From: Candidatus Nealsonbacteria bacterium
Lineage (GTDB): Bacteria; Patescibacteriota; Minisyncoccia; Minisyncoccales; PWPS01
NCBI GenBank assembly: GCA_003555075.1
Contig: PWHW01000002.1
Location: 96,210 to 160,209 of the forward strand
Length of the DNA stretch: 64,000 nucleotides
Direction of reading: 5' to 3'
Shown: piece after piece, positions 38,532 to 47,026 of the stretch
Position numbering within the stretch: position 1 is the first letter of the stretch
Layout of the letters: each line of letters begins with the position of its first letter
Translations under genes and position numbers: made by a program
Notes under the pieces: model-generated
Told to the model about the DNA's origin: nothing
The model's input: the letters and a program-made list of their open reading frames with translations, nothing else
Databases searched by the model: none

Positions 38532-39869
38532 GTGGATAGCAGTGTTCTTTTGAAAAAATTAAATGGGTTAATAATTAGCTGTGCTAAAAGGTTCTTTATT
38601 GATGGATTGGACTTTGAAGACATGATACAGATTGGAAGAGTGGCAGCATGGAAAGGTATAGAAGATCATGAAATCACAGAAGACAACTACAAAAAGTATT
38701 TACCTCTTTTGAAAACCTATATCGTAAATGCACTTAAGACAGAATTGAAAAGAACGAAGGCAAAAAAGAGGATAAATCTTTCAGAATCAGTAAGAATTGA
38801 TGCTCCTGTCAGTTTTGAAAATGAAAGAAAGCTTCATGAACTTATAGAAGATAAAAAAAGCAGTGAAGATTTTTTTGAAAAAGAAAGGCAACAGAAGTTT
38901 CTAATGCAGCTCAAGGATCATGCTCTCAAAGAGAGGTCTCGGAAAAGCATAAAAGCTGTTGTTTGGTTTTTAGTGCATATTCTTGATATCAGAAAAGAAG
39001 AAATACCCAGAAAAATTTCATTTGAAATTTTTTACAAATTCGGTCTTCAATATTATTTATGGGTATTCTTTAACAACTCTCCTTACAGAGCTATTAACTA
39101 TGCTTATCCTGGTCAATTCTCTCCCTATGAAATGCTGAGAGTTCCAAATGGTTATTGGGGATCTGAGGGGAAAGCAGGATGGGGTAGGCGTAGGGCCATT
39201 AAAGCATTAAAAAAAGCATTGGAAAGTACCGGATATCCTCCGGAGCCCTATCCTAAAATAGCCAGCTATAGATTTTTTGTCGAAATGCGGCTTACTGCTC
39301 CCCTAAATAAGTTTTTCGGATGGAGTCAATATGCTTATTTGGACGCAGCTTTTCCCGGGAAGTATAAACCATGGGAAATGAACTTTTCTCCCAAAGGTTT
39401 CTTTGAAAAGAGAGAGAATATTGTCTCTGCCGTCAAATGGATGGTCGAGGAAAAAATGAACATCCCAATGGAGGAGCTAACAGTTTACGAGGTTTGGGAG
39501 ATGAGGATCGATAAGAAAATCACCAAAGAAATTTTTTCTTTCTATGGATTAAGAGAGGTTCTTGCTCGGTACAACAATTCTCCCGGAAAGGTGCTAAAAG
39601 ATGTTTATCCGGAAAAATTTTTACCATGGAGCTTTCCTTGTAAAGAAAAATGGAAAGGGGAAGAAGGGAAAAGATTGGCAGCACAAGCTACAAAATGGGT
39701 GATAGAGGAGTATGCGGGAATATCTCCATTGTCTTCTGAAATCGGGTATCGTTTTTTTACAGAGAATGGGCTCCATGGAATGATAACTAGCAGAAGTCTT
39801 GGCTTTAACTCATCTCCAAAGGCAGCATTGATCAATGCATATCCACATCTTAAAAGCTCTTTTGACTAA
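38532..39869 (+). CDS. hypothetical protein: sigma-70 region-2-like N-terminus plus four internal ~75-aa repeats
   Basis: GTG start 8 nt after AAGGAGGTGA. N-terminus 'FEDMIQIGRVAAWKGIEDHE' (sigma r2.2-like). Repeats of the form [FY]G..Y......SP..A...AYP..F.PWE...P.G.W (residues ~170-250, 250-330, 330-405, 405-445). Confidence 0.55.
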   Translation: MDSSVLLKKLNGLIISCAKRFFIDGLDFEDMIQIGRVAAWKGIEDHEITEDNYKKYLPLLKTYIVNALKTELKRTKAKKRINLSESVRIDAPVSFENERKLHELIEDKKSSEDFFEKERQQKFLMQLKDHALKERSRKSIKAVVWFLVHILDIRKEEIPRKISFEIFYKFGLQYYLWVFFNNSPYRAINYAYPGQFSPYEMLRVPNGYWGSEGKAGWGRRRAIKALKKALESTGYPPEPYPKIASYRFFVEMRLTAPLNKFFGWSQYAYLDAAFPGKYKPWEMNFSPKGFFEKRENIVSAVKWMVEEKMNIPMEELTVYEVWEMRIDKKITKEIFSFYGLREVLARYNNSPGKVLKDVYPEKFLPWSFPCKEKWKGEEGKRLAAQATKWVIEEYAGISPLSSEIGYRFFTENGLHGMITSRSLGFNSSPKAALINAYPHLKSSFD

Positions 39870-41412: not shown

Positions 41413-41442
41413 TTGACAATTGAAGCAATTTTTTTGTATAAT
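41413..41442 (+). promoter_or_regulatory. sigma70-like promoter
   Basis: TTGACA-N18-TATAAT. Confidence 0.5.
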
Positions 41443-41519
41443 AAAAGTATTATAAACACGAGAACTCTCGTATATTAGGGTGTTCCTTTAAAAATTAAAG
41501 ATATTAGGAGGTGAAAGGA

Positions 41520-42845
41520 TTGAAAAGATTTTTGCTTGTAATTGGTTTGCTTTTGTTTGCAGGTGTAGCGACACATTTTTACTTCTTTCCTCCTGAGAGG
41601 GAAGTAAAAGATGAAGTTCGAGAAACAAATGAAGAGGAGCTGATCGAAGAGGAAGAAAGTGGAGGGTATGTTACTTTTTGGTTTGATGACGGACTTTTGT
41701 CTACCTATGAAGTTGCATATCCTGCTTTAGAGGAGCGTGGATGGGAGGGTGCGCTTGCAATAGTGGCAGGCAGAGAAATTGCATTAGAAAAATTTGAACC
41801 AGAAGGAGATTCAATAATGAGTTGGGATCAAGTAAGGGAATTAGAAGAAAAAGGATGGGAAATATCGAGTCATTCCATGACTCATACCAATCTCTCAGAA
41901 GTAAGGGATAATGATTCCTTGAAAAAGGAGATTATTACTTCAAAAGAAATTCTTGAAGAAAAAGATTTTGAAGTGAATTCTTTTGTCTTTCCTTACGGAG
42001 ATCCCGGAAATGAAGTGGTTTATGATCTTGTTATGGAAAACTATTCCTATTGGAGATTGACCACCTCAGGTGTAAACTCTGTACCATCGACAAAGCGTTT
42101 AGAAACTCTCTTTTTGACAGAGTGTGCTGACAGAGAAGAAATTGACAAATGGATAGAAAAAACAGAGGAAAAGAGTGGTTGGCTTATTATTGTTTTGCAC
42201 TCTATTCTTGAGGAACCGATTGGTTGGTGGCAGCAAACTCCGGAGCAATTTAATATGGTATTGGAGGCTGTAGAGGAAAGTTCTTTGGAAATTGTTTTGC
42301 CCAAAGATATATTTGAAAAATATGGCTATAAAGAAGATTGCTTGTCAAATGTAGAGATCAATGAAGTTCCCAGAACAGTAATTAGTGAAAGTGATTTTAA
42401 TGATAATCAGGTAGAAATAGTTATTCCTTCAATAAACGTGAGAACTTCTTTAAAGCTTGCTTTCTCAGAAGGGGAGGAAATTGATTTTTCGTATTTAGAT
42501 GATCATCCTGTAATGATCTCGGAGAATGAAAGTCCTTTTCTTAGTTCATTAGGAGAATACGGGACAGGATTGATTCTTTGTCATCGCAATCTCTTTTTTA
42601 GAGAACTTGATAAGCTAGAAAAAGAAGAGGAGTTTATGATCGTGAAAAATGATCGTGAGATTGTTTATGAGGTTTTTGACTCTATAGAAGTTGCTCCCGA
42701 TGATGTTTGGGAGCAAGTAAAGGAGATTCATGAAAAAGGATTAAGTGCGGAGGAGTCCAATGTCATTTTGATGACTTGCACTCCCTACGGACTCGGATGG
42801 GATAGGTTACTTGTTTTCGGAAGAACGGTTGAGAATATGAATTGA
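41520..42845 (+). CDS. fusion protein: N-terminal TM, NodB polysaccharide deacetylase domain, C-terminal sortase-like domain
   Basis: NodB motifs 'VTFWFDDGLLSTYE' and 'SHSMTHTNL'. The C-terminus has sortase-like catalytic motifs 'GLILCHRN' (His), 'NVILMTCTPYG' (L-x-TC Cys) and an Arg 10 residues later ('WDRLLVFGR'). TTG 41520 follows AGGAGGTGA; the ORF-track GTG 41511 abuts the SD. Confidence 0.55.
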   Translation: MKRFLLVIGLLLFAGVATHFYFFPPEREVKDEVRETNEEELIEEEESGGYVTFWFDDGLLSTYEVAYPALEERGWEGALAIVAGREIALEKFEPEGDSIMSWDQVRELEEKGWEISSHSMTHTNLSEVRDNDSLKKEIITSKEILEEKDFEVNSFVFPYGDPGNEVVYDLVMENYSYWRLTTSGVNSVPSTKRLETLFLTECADREEIDKWIEKTEEKSGWLIIVLHSILEEPIGWWQQTPEQFNMVLEAVEESSLEIVLPKDIFEKYGYKEDCLSNVEINEVPRTVISESDFNDNQVEIVIPSINVRTSLKLAFSEGEEIDFSYLDDHPVMISENESPFLSSLGEYGTGLILCHRNLFFRELDKLEKEEEFMIVKNDREIVYEVFDSIEVAPDDVWEQVKEIHEKGLSAEESNVILMTCTPYGLGWDRLLVFGRTVENMN

Positions 42846-42875: not shown

Positions 42876-43949
42876 GTGATATTGGTGGGAGTTTTTGCAA
42901 TACTTCCGGCGCACAATGAGGAGAAAAATATTGGCAATGCTGTTAAAGATCTTTTATTGCAAACAGTTAAAATTGAAAAGATAATTGTAGTGGCTGACAA
43001 TTGTAGCGATGGTACTGTTGAGGAAGTTAAAAGACTTTGCAGTGAATATGCCGATATTGAGCTCATGGAAACGAAAGGGAATCATTACCGTAAAGCAGGA
43101 GCAATAAACATGGCAATAGATGTGATAAGTGATGAAGATTGCGAGTTCTTGCTTGTTATGGACTCCGATTCCAGAGTGGCATTGGATTTGGTGGAAAGAG
43201 CAATGGAATCCTTTGAGAGTGAAGAAAACCTAGGGGGAGTTTGCTCTACTGCACATGTCATTAAACCTCAAAATCTACCTTCTTCTTGGATTAGGAACCT
43301 GGAAGCTCGGTTTATGGGAGCGTTGCAGAGACTTGAATATGCTGGGTTTGATGCCGAAAGAGTTGCGACTTGGAATAATGTAACTATTCTACATGGTTTA
43401 TGTGCAGTTTATAGATTCAAAGCGATAAAGGAAGCAGGAGGATATACTCTCGGACACCTTATAGAGGATTACGATCTTACAGTGAAATTAAAGAAGCTCG
43501 GTTGGCAAGCAAGGTTTAATCCAAAAATGGTTGCTTGGACAGAAGTGCCACTGAGTTTGAAATCTTTTTTCAAACAGCGACTAAGATGGATGAGAGGCGG
43601 GATTGATGTCTTGGTGGATCATGGAATAAACAGGATTACCATAGAGGATGCATTTCATCACTTTCTTTTCATCTGCCTTCTCTTGGCAATATCAGGGTTT
43701 ATAATTCTATCTTTTATTTATCACGGAGAGTGGAGGTTCGGGTTTAATCCTCATCCAATACCTATTCTTGTAGCGATTATTGGCTACCTTATAAGTCTTT
43801 ATAAATTACGCTACTTAAAAGATGCGAGATTTTCGGAGATAATTCTAAGGATTATAATTCTCCCGGAACTCTTAATTGCGATTGCATTAATGGGGGTTCG
43901 AACATATGCGTATTTTCTAGCATTATTCAAATGCTCTCAAGAATGGTAA
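42876..43949 (+). CDS. family 2 glycosyltransferase, processive type (QxxRW), with C-terminal TM helices
   Basis: 'LPAHNEEKNIGNAV...VVADNCSDGT', DxD 'VMDSDS', 'QRLRWMRGG', and three C-terminal TM helices. Confidence 0.75.
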   Translation: MILVGVFAILPAHNEEKNIGNAVKDLLLQTVKIEKIIVVADNCSDGTVEEVKRLCSEYADIELMETKGNHYRKAGAINMAIDVISDEDCEFLLVMDSDSRVALDLVERAMESFESEENLGGVCSTAHVIKPQNLPSSWIRNLEARFMGALQRLEYAGFDAERVATWNNVTILHGLCAVYRFKAIKEAGGYTLGHLIEDYDLTVKLKKLGWQARFNPKMVAWTEVPLSLKSFFKQRLRWMRGGIDVLVDHGINRITIEDAFHHFLFICLLLAISGFIILSFIYHGEWRFGFNPHPIPILVAIIGYLISLYKLRYLKDARFSEIILRIIILPELLIAIALMGVRTYAYFLALFKCSQEW

Positions 43950-43977
43950 TAATCTTGAAGAAAGGAGGGTTGAGAAA

Positions 43978-44136
43978 ATGCCATATGGAGAAGTTGCTTT
44001 ACCGTCTACGGGTGGATTTCTTTTGGGAGGAGCAATTGGACTCTTTTACGATTGGGCCATTGCTATTGTCGTAGTGATTTTAGTTCTTTCATTAATAGGA
44101 GTGTGGAGATTGTATAGAGGTCAAAAAACAATATAA
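43978..44136 (+). CDS. 52-aa micro-protein that is essentially a complete LPXTG sorting signal
   Basis: The ATG sits 8 nt after GAAAGGAGGG. Protein: 'MPYGEVALPSTGGFLLGGAIGLFYDWAIAIVVVILVLSLIGVWRLYRGQKTI'. It has LPSTG, then a ~27-aa hydrophobic segment, then an R/K tail. Not in the ORF track (<60 aa). Confidence 0.5.
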   Translation: MPYGEVALPSTGGFLLGGAIGLFYDWAIAIVVVILVLSLIGVWRLYRGQKTI

Positions 44137-44163
44137 CACACCCTAAAAGTTCTTTCTTAAATA

Positions 44164-44191
44164 ACACGTCTTAAATTAGACGTGTTTTTTT
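44164..44191 (+). terminator. rho-independent terminator
   Basis: ACACGTCT-TAAATT-AGACGTGT followed by TTTTTTT. Confidence 0.7.
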
Positions 44192-44212: not shown

Positions 44213-44240
44213 TTGACATTTTTTTCATTTGACGTAGAAT
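44213..44240 (+). promoter_or_regulatory. sigma70-like promoter
   Basis: TTGACA-N16-TAGAAT. Confidence 0.5.
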
Positions 44241-44299: not shown

Positions 44300-44845
44300 T
44301 TGAAAAAAATTTTAGAATGGATGGTCACAGGAATTCTGATTTTAGCGATCTTTCTTTTTATTTTTATGTTCATCGGCCCTAGGTTTGGCTGGGAAACCCA
44401 CCCTGTTCTTTCCGGTTCTATGGAGCCGGCCTTGGAGGTGGGGGGAATAATTGTTACTAAGCCTGAAAAGTTGGAAAATATTCAAAAAGGGGATATTATT
44501 ACGTTCCAAACAGAAGGGCCAAAAGTAACGCACCGTATAGTGGACATAAAAGAAATTGAAGGTGAACGATGGTTTCAAACCAAAGGAGACGCTAATAAGG
44601 AACCCGATCGTGACCTTGTCTCTTCTCAAGGAGATGTGATGAGAAAGGTCTTTCTCTACCTTCCTTATTTGGGCTTTGCCGCTCAATTTATGCAAAGCAA
44701 ATGGGCTTTCATTGTTCTTGTCGGAATTCCTTCTGTTATTTTAATAGGATGGCTTGGCAAGGATGTTTGGGAAGGAATTGAAGAAGAGAGAAGGAAAAAG
44801 AGGAAAAAAGAAGAGAATGAGGAAGATCGCAAGGAAGGAGAGTGA
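44300..44845 (+). CDS. SipW-type (ER/archaeal-type) signal peptidase I
   Basis: TTG start. TM followed by 'VLSGSMEPALEVGGIIV' (catalytic Ser), 'THRIV' and 'TKGDAN'. A C-terminal TM and a K/E tail. Confidence 0.7.
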   Translation: MKKILEWMVTGILILAIFLFIFMFIGPRFGWETHPVLSGSMEPALEVGGIIVTKPEKLENIQKGDIITFQTEGPKVTHRIVDIKEIEGERWFQTKGDANKEPDRDLVSSQGDVMRKVFLYLPYLGFAAQFMQSKWAFIVLVGIPSVILIGWLGKDVWEGIEEERRKKRKKEENEEDRKEGE

Positions 44846-44972
44846 TTTCCATCTATCGTTTTTATTACTAGTGATTGCACTTTTAAAAAGAGATAAGAGG
44901 TGTTGAGCTTAAAATTACTTCTTTGGATGTTTTACAATAATATGACTCCAAAGGAGAGAAAGGAGGAGTCAA

Positions 44973-45638
44973 TTGAAAAAAGTACTAGCTTTTTTCTTGG
45001 TACTTGCAATGAGTGTTGGCTTAGTTGGGGCAGGAACCACAGCATATTTTACTGACACTGAAGAATCTAGCAGTAATTCTTTTACGGCCGGAGTGTGGGA
45101 AACTGAGCAAGAAGAAGAAATTGAAGAAGATCTGATGATGCTTGAAGAGGAAACAGTTCAAGAAAGTGTTTATGATGAAAAGGAAGAACTTGACAACCCT
45201 GAAGAGTCCGGTAATGACGAGGGCACCGAAGGAGAGAACGACGAAGAAACCGAAAGTGATGATCCTGAAGGCGAAGAAACTAACGGTGAGGAACCGGAGA
45301 ATGAAGAATCCGAGGCTTCCGAAGAAGAATCAGGAGAAAATGATGTTTCTTGTGATTCTGACGATGAAGAATGCTCCGATGATGAAGAATCTATGAATGG
45401 TGATCCCGAAGATCCTCAGGACTCTGAAGACGGGGAATCCCAAGAAGAAGAAAGCGTATCAGACGAAGAAGAGAGCGGTGCTGATGAGTGCGTGGAAGAG
45501 GAAGATGAAGAGTCCGGTAATGACGAGGGCACCGAAGAAGAGAGCGACGAAGAAACCGAAAGTGATGATTCTGAAGGCGAAGAAACTAACGGTGAGGAAC
45601 CGGAGAGTGAAGAATCCGAAGCTTCCGGAGAAGAATAG
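44973..45638 (+). CDS. SipW-cognate-signal-peptide protein with a polyacidic tandem-repeat tail
   Basis: TTG start. 'AMSVGLVGAGTTAYFTDTEESSSNSFTAG' is the TasA/camelysin-class signal motif. The remaining ~175 aa is E/D/S-rich and contains two ~41-aa repeats (nt 45205-45330 and 45512-45636). Confidence 0.6.
   Translation: MKKVLAFFLVLAMSVGLVGAGTTAYFTDTEESSSNSFTAGVWETEQEEEIEEDLMMLEEETVQESVYDEKEELDNPEESGNDEGTEGENDEETESDDPEGEETNGEEPENEESEASEEESGENDVSCDSDDEECSDDEESMNGDPEDPQDSEDGESQEEESVSDEEESGADECVEEEDEESGNDEGTEEESDEETESDDSEGEETNGEEPESEESEASGEE
45205..45636 (+). repeat. two ~125-nt direct repeats inside the acidic-protein CDS
   Basis: tccggtaatgacgagggcaccgaag...gaagaaactaacggtgaggaaccggag occurs at 45205 and 45512, ~90% identical and frame-preserving. 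Confidence 0.7.
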
Positions 45639-45642
45639 GTTA

Positions 45643-45671
45643 TTGACAAAAACTGTATAATTTGTTATACT
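45643..45671 (+). promoter_or_regulatory. sigma70-like promoter
   Basis: TTGACA-N17-TATACT; the spacer contains AAAACTGTA. Confidence 0.5.
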
Positions 45672-45795
45672 GAAAAATTCTATTATGATCTTTCAAAAGA
45701 AAGGAGGCCGGAGTAAAGAGGTATGCGAAAAGCTCTTCCTTGGGAATTCACCAAAAACGGTGAAAAATCCAACTCAAGGAAGAAAGGAGGACTAG

Positions 45796-46404
45796 ATGAA
45801 AAAGAAGTTAGTTTTTAGTTTGTTGGCTCTTATGTTGGTGGTTGGACTTGTTGGAGCAGGTTCGTTTGCGGTTTTCAGTGATACGGAGAAAAGCGAGGAA
45901 AATGTTTTCCAAGCCGGAACGTTGGAGCTTGACGTGGAAGGTGCAGATGAAGGAGTTACGACATACAGTTTTGAAAACATCAAGCCCGGTGATATCGGTG
46001 GCTGGGATGGTCTTCACGACAATCCGCAATGGATTACTGAAAGGCCGCAGTGGACAGTTAAAAACACAGGTTCACTTCCGGGTGAGCTGACCGTCACTAT
46101 TGAGAATATTCGAGACTATGATGAAAATGACAACCAAATCGACACTGCAGACGGAGCGTTGTCATGGGCAATAGATATATGGTTTAAGGGTGGTGGCAGC
46201 AACTTCTGGGGACATCTTGGCAGGGGAGAACCAGCTCTTGTGATAGACTTAGATCCCGGTGATGAGATTACTGTGCAGTGTCAGTGGCAACTAGGCAGTG
46301 AGCCGAATGATGGCTGGAATGTTTTGCAAGGACATAGTACCGAATTTGACGTGAGGTTCTACCTGGAACAAACAGAAGAACCAACGGCGGATGTTTCACC
46401 ATAA
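45796..46404 (+). CDS. TasA/camelysin-family (Peptidase_M73-like) secreted protein with SipW-cognate signal peptide
   Basis: 'LMLVVGLVGAGSFAVFSDTEKSEENVFQAGTLELDV', 'FENIKPGD', 'WTVKNTGSLPGELTV'. These parallel Bacillus TasA 'AAFNDIKSKDATFASGTLDL', 'NLKPGD' and 'FQFENNGSL'. Confidence 0.7.
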   Translation: MKKKLVFSLLALMLVVGLVGAGSFAVFSDTEKSEENVFQAGTLELDVEGADEGVTTYSFENIKPGDIGGWDGLHDNPQWITERPQWTVKNTGSLPGELTVTIENIRDYDENDNQIDTADGALSWAIDIWFKGGGSNFWGHLGRGEPALVIDLDPGDEITVQCQWQLGSEPNDGWNVLQGHSTEFDVRFYLEQTEEPTADVSP

Positions 46405-46576
46405 CACAACTTACTAATAGTCAAATTTTTGAGCAACAACTCTCTTATCTCTTTCTTCAAAGCCCGAGTTATTAAACCAAACTCGGGCTTTTTTTCTTGA
46501 CAATCCACTGATTGATGATATGGTATAAAAAATTCGTTTGTTCTCTTAAAAAAATATAAGAAAGGAGGAAAAGAAA

Positions 46577-47026
46577 GTGAAAAAAGTTTTGATCAATTTC
46601 TTTGGAGTTTTTTTATTACTTTTTTTGGTGGCAATAAGTGTTCATATAATATTTTTCAAAACTCCCGAGGTAAATATCGGAATACCCGAAAGCGCAATAT
46701 TTGATTTAGAGGAAGACGGCCATTGGTACCCCGGAAAGAGAGTAGAGAAGAAAGTGGAAATAGAGAATGCCGGAAACGTGCCTGTAAAGGTGTCCTTTTT
46801 TGCTGTTCAAAAAGAGAGCAGCCCCTTAAGAGTGAGCTTTCAGCTGCCGGAAAAAGATGGGCGCAAGATTGATCCCGGAGAAAACAAGGAGGTTTTGGTC
46901 AGAGCTTATATGCCGGCTGAAACCGGAAATGCTTTTCAAGGAGAAAGATGGAAAAAGGATTTCATTTTTCGTGCCAACAAGCAAGGTGTTTTCAAAGAGC
47001 AGGATCTTTTAAAAAGGAGGTGGTGA
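46577..47026 (+). CDS. hypothetical secreted protein, possibly a divergent TasA-like domain
   Basis: GTG start after AAGGAGG. N-terminal TM. 'KKVEIENAGNVPVKVSFFAV' resembles the TasA 'FQFENNGSL' strand region. Confidence 0.35.
   Translation: MKKVLINFFGVFLLLFLVAISVHIIFFKTPEVNIGIPESAIFDLEEDGHWYPGKRVEKKVEIENAGNVPVKVSFFAVQKESSPLRVSFQLPEKDGRKIDPGENKEVLVRAYMPAETGNAFQGERWKKDFIFRANKQGVFKEQDLLKRRW

Follow-up and report, generated by a model that had tools for sequence, protein, structure and literature searches.

A stand-alone LPxTG micro-protein encoded beside a polysaccharide synthase and a deacetylase–sortase fusion in Patescibacteria

Why should a bacterium keep a gene that encodes nothing but a cell-wall sorting signal? 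The question is raised by a 64,000-nucleotide stretch of DNA from a Candidatus Nealsonbacteria bacterium of the Patescibacteriota (GenBank assembly GCA_003555075.1, contig PWHW01000002.1, positions 96,210–160,209 of the forward strand), here called the window and numbered from its first letter. A first-pass annotation, made from the letters of the window alone, had singled out an open reading frame (ORF) whose product combines an LPSTG pentapeptide, a hydrophobic span and a basic tail, and had called a gene of this kind highly unusual. The description holds: the micro-ORF is a genuine protein-coding gene under purifying selection, it is always stand-alone, and its product belongs to a new, previously unannotated family for which we found neither a curated model (Pfam, NCBIfam) nor a paper. 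It is the last gene of an operon that also encodes a fusion of a CE4 deacetylase with a sortase and a GT2 glycosyltransferase of the processive-synthase type. With a probability of about one half, the micro-protein is a synthase-associated, single-pass membrane protein with its N-terminus outside that serves as the dedicated acyl donor of the operon sortase.

The micro-ORF and its family

The micro-ORF occupies positions 43978–44136 of the forward strand, on which all of the operon features described here lie, and runs from ATG to TAA. Its 52-residue product (MPYGEVALPSTGGFLLGGAIGLFYDWAIAIVVVILVLSLIGVWRLYRGQKTI) is exactly the translation quoted in the first-pass annotation, including the seven residues (MPYGEVA) that precede LPSTG. 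A strong Shine–Dalgarno sequence (GAAAGGAGGG, 43960–43969) is located 8 nt upstream of the ATG, as had been described, and a terminator-like hairpin with a 9-bp stem (44163–44186, extending to 44193 with its T-run) ends the operon; this terminator had also been recognized, but at a distance of 28 nt from the stop codon, whereas the hairpin starts 26 nt past it. The sortase-type pentapeptide LPSTG (residues 8–12, 43999–44013) is conserved and lies on an unstructured N-terminal tail together with Tyr3 (codon 43984–43986), which is invariant across the family. The site is spanned by the peptides MPYGEVALPSTGGF and MPYGEVALPSTGGFL, and by MYGPDLPATGGG in an orthologue. A single helix is predicted for residues 13–51 (44014–44130) from an AlphaFold2 (AF2) model, hydropathy and charge bias. 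In the AF2 model, which was computed from a 20-sequence alignment and has a mean predicted local distance difference test score (pLDDT) of 71, residues 1–12 are coil and residues 13–51 form a continuous helix; its proximal part is Gly-rich, the hydrophobic core comprises residues 27–45 and the basic tail reads RLYRGQK.

An ORF this short might have arisen by chance or might be what remains of the 3′ end after disruption of a larger LPxTG gene, and a word-indexed homologue search with the 52-residue protein as the single query returned only the self-match. The frame is closed upstream by an in-frame TAG (43918–43920), and the preceding GT2 gene lies in another frame and has its full length (357 residues, compared with 346–360 in homologues), so the micro-ORF is not a detached 3′ end. 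With full-length neighbours and a family that always stands alone, its reading as a fragment, frameshift product or pseudogene, which the first-pass annotation had raised as a caveat, was rejected. Among ORFs of at least 30 residues in the window it is the sole case in which LPxTG, a hydrophobic span and a basic tail occur together, and no such ORF appeared in 100 shuffled windows. A codon comparison of the closest orthologues gave nonsynonymous (dN) and synonymous (dS) divergences of ∼0.31 and ∼1.7, with a dN/dS of ∼0.18 against the orthologue of locus L027. The identical micro-protein is present on seven contigs, which derive from soda-lake-type samples and from the metagenome-assembled genome (MAG) GCA_003552105.1. 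Purifying selection and the conservation of a stand-alone family, of its Shine–Dalgarno sequence and of its genomic position refute an artefactual origin, to which we assign a negligible chance.

The family was reached through synteny and then with an alignment-based profile. Homologues of the fusion protein share 34–48% sequence identity with it, and those with a source label come from Patescibacteria. Behind the GT2 gene that follows each of them is an ORF of 52–66 residues with a strong Shine–Dalgarno sequence and the same layout. The alignment of these syntenic ORFs retrieved 24 clusters from an indexed database, and a profile search of 1.84 billion representative proteins retrieved 59 clusters (50% identity) at E ≤ 1e-3. 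Nearly all of these are 49–66 residues long and align from residue 1, the few longer ones being mis-called starts or run-on ends, and the same search gave no match at the C-terminus of any large protein. Examples are MSYGPSLPATGGG...NLRKGEKTLKS, MYGPDLPATG...KLRKGEGKV and MPYGETALPSTGGG...RLYRGQKETKEL.

Family statistics are based on 73–74 unique sequences. Tyr is found at residue 2–5 in every member. The pentapeptide starts 3–7 residues after Met1 (5–7 residues in 68 of 74 sequences) and is a strict LPxTG in 57 of 73 and [LIV]PxTG in 65 of 73, with x mostly Ala; the motif is thus kept in relatives, a point on which the first-pass annotation had made its proposal depend. The Thr of the pentapeptide is essentially invariant and GG comes next in 46 of 73 sequences. 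A Gly-rich, weakly hydrophobic stretch follows, then a polar position, a hydrophobic core of ∼20 residues and a tail with the consensus L(R/K)xGE(K/R). Nearly all orthologous loci have a GGAGG-type Shine–Dalgarno sequence. In its pentapeptide, hydrophobic span and basic C-terminal tail, and in the His-Cys-Arg sortase encoded alongside, the family resembles the LPXTG sorting signal (TIGR01167/PF00746). It differs from that signal in that there is neither a signal peptide nor a passenger domain, with merely 3–7 residues ahead of the motif, and in its invariant N-terminal Tyr, the GG after the motif, the L(R/K)xGE(K/R) tail and the linkage of the gene to GT2.

Pfam and NCBIfam scans of the micro-protein and 20 family members identified no family above threshold, the family profile matched sequences in the PDB only through chance resemblance of transmembrane (TM) segments, and Rfam, tRNA and tandem-repeat scans returned nothing relevant to the locus. 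Almost all of the family members with a source label are from Patescibacteria. Two short contigs with a Patescibacteria-type operon are labelled otherwise, L013 (JBPOHM010000148.1, 3.3 kb) as `Bacillota bacterium' and L016 (JABXGV010000193.1, 2.8 kb) as `archaeon'; both labels are probably due to mis-binning, and lateral transfer may be another explanation.

Gene order and partner proteins

The micro-ORF is the last of three co-directional, closely spaced genes located between a promoter-like site (41413–41442; TTGACA-18 nt-TATAAT, 12/12 matches, sigma-70-like) and the terminator hairpin, beyond which the next promoter-like site is found at 44213–44240. A three-gene operon follows from the positions of the micro-ORF, its Shine–Dalgarno sequence, the terminator and the promoter. 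Gene 1 (41511–42845; start at 41520 according to gene callers) encodes the membrane-anchored CE4 deacetylase–sortase fusion and is the sortase-domain protein that had been reported two genes upstream. The fusion protein consists of a TM anchor (residues 7–25), a CE4 domain (residues ∼50–285) and a sortase domain (residues ∼291–442, 42381–42842) with the motifs CHRN, TCTPYG and RLLV. Both Pfam matches are above their cut-offs (PF01522, 52.6 bits; PF04203, 41.6 bits with a gathering cut-off of 26.6). The CE4 motifs TFWFDDG and HSxTH and the sortase residues His358, Cys423 and Arg432 are invariant in nine fusion homologues. Most fusion homologues carry a lipobox (L-x-G-C; compared over 41511–41590 of the window) and are probably lipoproteins; the window fusion and two others (P0003 and P0004) have an uncleaved-looking hydrophobic anchor without Cys, and the mode of attachment has thus changed within the family. 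Gene 2 (42876–43949) encodes the GT2 glycosyltransferase, with a QRLRW motif, no N-terminal TM helix and few C-terminal TM helices. Its best curated match is PgaC_IcaA (E = 6e-31), at 107.8 bits below the equivalog cut-off of 422.3, and its closest solved structure is BcsA.

Gene order was compared over 20 distinct loci that are readable past the GT2 gene. The micro-ORF is located directly 3′ of GT2 in all 20, and a sortase of the same subfamily adjoins in 16, fused to CE4 in 14 and stand-alone in two. Homologous micro-ORFs near sortase genes, which the first-pass annotation had suggested looking for, therefore do exist, with the sortase in the same operon at these 16 loci. The two stand-alone sortases (L042 and L046) are lipoproteins in which GHRQW, TCTPYG and RLLV are intact; the CE4 gene is on the opposite strand in L042 and none is in view in L046. 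The sortase His-Cys-Arg triad is invariant in fusions and stand-alone enzymes alike, which argues for catalysis over mere docking, and the CE4 metal/acid motifs are invariant across the fusions. The four other loci (L014, L015, L027/L048 and L047) encode a CE4 protein without a sortase domain, and no sortase was detected in their available flanks, up to ±10 kb, using tblastn, Pfam matches of neighbouring ORFs and a sortase-domain hidden Markov model. Two of them, L015 and L027, are the nearest relatives of the window locus. At loci with distantly related deacetylases only, the micro-ORF is absent. The proposed genetic link to a sortase is thus borne out at 16 of the 20 loci, but the family persists at four that have none nearby. 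Its one invariant partner is the GT2, which the first-pass annotation had not considered.

Adjacency to GT2, as the only invariant association, suggests an alternative in which the micro-protein is an unprocessed synthase subunit like IcaD or PgaD. It would then be a structural or activating TM partner of the GT2 in which the likeness to LPxTG serves for binding at most and never for cleavage, and in which the conserved outer tail (Tyr, Pro-x-Thr-Gly-Gly) touches the deacetylase, the polymer or the site where the polymer leaves the synthase. IcaD and PgaD are also small membrane proteins encoded directly after a PgaC/IcaA-like processive GT2, with a CE4 deacetylase in the operon (icaADBC, pgaABCD; PMC7674160), and the short intergenic gaps are like that between icaA and icaD (PMC7674160). 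An extra helix is plausible for a GT2 with so few of its own, and the four loci without a nearby sortase keep the family with its Tyr, Pro, Thr and GG. However, the micro-protein has one helix and 52 residues, whereas IcaD and PgaD have two TM helices and 101–137 residues (101 residues and two TM helices in IcaD; PMC7674160); it carries LPxTG and comes with a sortase, which ica and pga systems do not have; and scans of the window protein and 20 family members against Pfam and NCBIfam at E ≤ 10 revealed no similarity to PgaD or IcaD. Strict selection of LPxTG (57/73) would be unexplained, as would the presence at 16 of 20 loci of a catalytically intact sortase from a single subfamily, which at two of these loci is separate from the deacetylase. 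We consider a subunit of this type possible but rather doubtful.

Conventional large LPxTG proteins are rare in the 318 kb scanned and never lie inside the operon. One of them, a 255-residue protein at locus L010 (1660–2427), has a conventional signal (LPETG followed by 29 residues), which implies that ordinary sortase substrates exist in these lineages. This protein and an LTD-domain protein are encoded upstream of the fusion homologue at that locus (L010, 1–3225), with an IS200-like Y1 transposase between them and the fusion gene. Just 3′ of the operon, genes of the GH18 (chitinase) family are found at two loci (L045, 7916–9073; L043, 8562–9065), and a PAP2 phosphatase gene at one. These neighbours lend weak circumstantial support to a polymer based on N-acetylglucosamine, similar to chitin or poly-N-acetylglucosamine, as the GT2 product.

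A possible acyl donor for the operon sortase

We propose that the micro-protein belongs, as a third subunit, to a polysaccharide-synthase module of Patescibacteria. The helix and the basic tail would keep it in the membrane beside the GT2, a physical association to which the synteny points. The net charge of the N-terminal tail is ∼0 and the C-terminal tail has a mean of 5.0 Lys/Arg residues, so that an N-out/C-in topology is predicted by the positive-inside rule, with the N-terminus on the side of the sortase. The 12-residue unstructured outer tail would offer Tyr3 and LPSTG-GG to the extracytoplasmic sortase domain. As the motif and the operon suggest, the sortase may then cut between Thr11 and Gly12, holding MPYGEVALPST as a thioester on Cys423 and leaving a GG(F/G)-helix stub in the membrane. 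Whether by release or by attachment, the 11-residue peptide might conceivably leave the enzyme as the first-pass annotation had imagined; in our scheme it would be passed to a primary amine. The favoured acceptor would be the glucosamine amine freshly unmasked by the fused CE4 domain on the nascent polymer, and the conventional alternative would be peptidoglycan. By established CE4 and sortase chemistry, the CE4 product is a free amine, the type of functional group that a sortase acyl-enzyme requires. It is the CE4–sortase domain fusion by itself that points to this acceptor, through Rosetta-stone logic and chemical complementarity, and it makes the CE4-generated sugar amines an attractive candidate.

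The role of dedicated acyl donor is favoured by the strictly selected LPxTG on an exposed tail, by the intact sortase of one subfamily that accompanies it at 80% of the loci, both as a CE4 fusion and as a separate protein, by the lack of any other consistent LPxTG partner and by the loss of the scissile-site Gly in a clade without sortase. This last argument comes from a comparison of motif and sortase presence across the loci. The scissile site is T-G in 16 of 16 sortase-bearing loci. At L014 (1975–2154) and L047 (11933–12115), which belong to one sortase-less clade, LPVTSGG replaces LPxTGGG. A further member of the clade, P0032, comes from a 3858-bp contig, and a tandem double CE4 protein without a sortase domain (P0010, 513 residues) likewise comes from a contig of 3858 bp; P0032 thus probably shares a contig with P0010 and represents a third sortase-less T-S locus. 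The tails of all three members read GEA(K/E) in place of GEK. With P0032 counted, the T-G/T-S split is 16/0 in the presence and 2/3 in the absence of a sortase (Fisher p = 0.0075), a covariation that is suggestive but weak.

A number of observations weigh against an acyl-donor role. The four sortase-less loci retain the micro-protein, and two of them retain a perfect LPxTG (LPVTG in L015 and LPSTG in L027). The T-G/T-S association involves a single clade and hence one evolutionary event, and its third T-S locus is deduced only from contigs of equal size. At two WWE3 loci (L009, 8398–8559; L017, 7294–7455) the tail reads MYK(N/P)VI(T/A)TGGG and has no Leu-Pro, although the triad of the fused sortase is intact; either IxTG-type sites are acceptable to the WWE3 sortase, or the tail acts independently of it at these loci. 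The family is not recognized by the curated LPXTG-anchor models: the window protein has no match to TIGR01167 or PF00746 at E ≤ 1, and of 20 family members four match TIGR01167 weakly (best E = 0.089) and one matches PF00746 (E = 0.37), all below threshold. A median of 35 residues separates the motif from the basic tail, more than the 29 of the conventional LPETG protein of L010. Transfer of a peptide of 9–11 residues brings no obvious benefit and would spend a whole protein per event. We know of no natural sortase with a sugar-amine acceptor; there is an in vitro precedent with amino sugars, for which a literature search on sortases and such nucleophiles brought up no relevant paper. The variant loci all retain Tyr, Thr and GG, and the four sortase-less ones also Pro, which indicates that the tail serves in part the GT2 or the polymer and not the sortase alone.

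The retained Tyr bears on a further possibility, namely that the micro-protein is a peptide primer or adaptor. The Tyr-tipped tail, for example by threading into the synthase channel as an acceptor, would become covalently joined to the GT2 polysaccharide, and the sortase would cut LPxT-G and attach the conjugate to peptidoglycan, making the micro-protein a minimal carrier that turns a polysaccharide into sortase cargo. The Tyr lies invariably 1–4 residues after Met1, the tail is unstructured and of narrowly defined length (68 of 74 sequences have 5–7 residues ahead of the motif), and adjacency to the GT2 is strict, all of which would suit a primer. The topology poses a problem, since the GT2 active site is cytoplasmic and the tail is predicted to be outside. 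Sortase-less loci would also need another route, and to our knowledge no glycosyl-Tyr chemistry has been described for QxxRW synthases. The precedent is GspA of Actinomyces oris, which together with LcpA and SrtA provides a case of a sortase that anchors a glycopolymer-bearing protein, so that the relevant cargo is the glycopolymer (PMC6381275). Unlike the micro-protein, GspA is a full-size LPXTG protein that is glycosylated by an LCP enzyme, and that system has no synthase-type GT2; here, there is no LCP gene and the cargo peptide has fewer than ten residues. On balance, we regard a primer or adaptor as unlikely.

Both this route and the acyl-donor route that we prefer could lead to the same type of product. 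It is a tentative and somewhat improbable extension that the operon makes a natural peptide–polysaccharide conjugate by sortase chemistry, either with CE4-unmasked glucosamine as the nucleophile or with a Tyr-tipped tail that primes or carries the polymer and is then anchored to the wall. In the first case, this would be the first natural sugar acceptor of a sortase; in either case, Patescibacteria would use a cargo-less adaptor to make the polysaccharide from the synthase a substrate or product of a sortase.

Among solved structures, those closest to the sortase domain itself are class C enzymes, which share its TCTPYG catalytic motif. These use a non-peptidoglycan amine, the pilin Lys, as the nucleophile. 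The window sortase differs in that its partial match to the class C model NF033745 (45.5 bits) is below the cut-off of 160, it is fused to CE4, and neither a pilin gene nor a conserved Lys in the micro-protein tail accompanies it. Pilin-like polymerization of the micro-protein was rejected for want of a conserved Lys in the tail, Lys being found before the motif in four of 73 sequences. The PEP-CTERM/exosortase system also combines a sorting transpeptidase, a short C-terminal signal and extracellular-polysaccharide loci with GT2 and polysaccharide-deacetylase genes (PMC1569441). It differs in enzyme family, motif and phyla, and PEP-CTERM proteins have signal peptides and passenger regions; the XrtG- and XrtA-associated NCBIfam models gave distant matches only. 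We found no paper or curated model for a sortase–CE4 fusion, for an LPxTG micro-protein that has no cargo, or for any coupling of these two to a GT2 synthase.

Flanking features and significance

Downstream of the operon, positions 44300–47026 of the window encode a signal peptidase I of the SipW (archaeal-like) type and, after it, three small proteins that are secreted; the segment has a promoter of its own (the site at 44213–44240). A signal peptide that depends on SipW (TIGR04088) is present in two of the secreted proteins, and the third matches the BsaA family weakly; the segment is a TasA-like biofilm-fibre cassette in a Patescibacterium. Two independent assemblies (SRR16248208 and SRR16248215) are 100% identical to the window, except that 44288 is joined straight to 46757. 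These strain variants lack the 2468-bp segment 44289–46756, which comprises SipW, two TasA/camelysin-like SipW-cognate proteins and the start of the third, and their micro-ORF operon is intact. A functional link between the micro-ORF and the cassette was rejected, since the arrangement is not conserved elsewhere and the cassette is deleted in strain variants.

The presence of SipW is of interest for another reading, which develops the first-pass suggestion of a membrane-resident regulator of the sortase. The micro-protein would act as a chaperone or regulator similar to SafA of Actinobacteria, binding the membrane anchor of the sortase and, for example, shielding it from the signal peptidase SipW encoded 3′ of the micro-ORF. 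SafA also has 52 residues, a single TM helix and a genetic link to a sortase, and it antagonizes signal peptidase (PMC9282373). It is encoded directly after the housekeeping srtA, has an exoplasmic FPW motif next to the TM helix and is not a substrate (PMC9282373); the micro-protein, in contrast, follows a GT2 that always separates it from the sortase, bears the substrate motif itself and has no FPW, which is absent from the aligned family members as well. No SafA-type match was found in the Pfam and NCBIfam scans of the window protein and 20 members. Adjacency to SipW is not conserved elsewhere and variants without the SipW cassette retain the micro-ORF, most fusion homologues, as probable lipoproteins, have no TM anchor in need of protection, and the family also occurs without any sortase nearby. 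A SafA-like role is thus very unlikely.

Two other proteins of the window vary between assemblies. The SipW-cognate protein encoded at 44973–45638 is extremely acidic (rich in Glu, Asp and Ser) and has an internal repeat of ∼306 bp, with 45200–45334 being ∼95% identical to 45506–45639, a repeat that Tandem Repeats Finder did not report. It has 221 residues in the window and 323 in a JGI soda-lake contig (L001, 6653–7624), from which it follows that the repeat copy number varies between strains. The 445-residue protein encoded at 38532–39869 matches sigma-70 region 2 at its N-terminus only, its long C-terminal part being DUF4046-like. The copy in the NCBI MAG (L002, 4555–5892) is called as two ORFs of 111 and 321 residues, which suggests a frameshift or indel difference between the assemblies.

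Sortases are understood as enzymes that join secreted proteins of some size, or pilins, to one another or to peptidoglycan. In the operon described here, the conserved partner that resembles a substrate is nearly cargo-less, the domain fused to the sortase generates free amines on a polysaccharide, and the module is built around a processive polysaccharide synthase. The conservation of this arrangement suggests that sortase chemistry and polysaccharide export may be linked in a way that has not been described. Few small membrane proteins with a function are known, and the family extends their list by a micro-protein that had escaped annotation; a sortase that accepts sugar amines, if this is what the operon encodes, could become a useful ligation tool. 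If the sortase does process the micro-protein, this would be a new use of sortases, namely to tag, release, gate or anchor a polysaccharide, and it would be found in the Candidate Phyla Radiation, where the surfaces of episymbiotic cells are almost unexplored.

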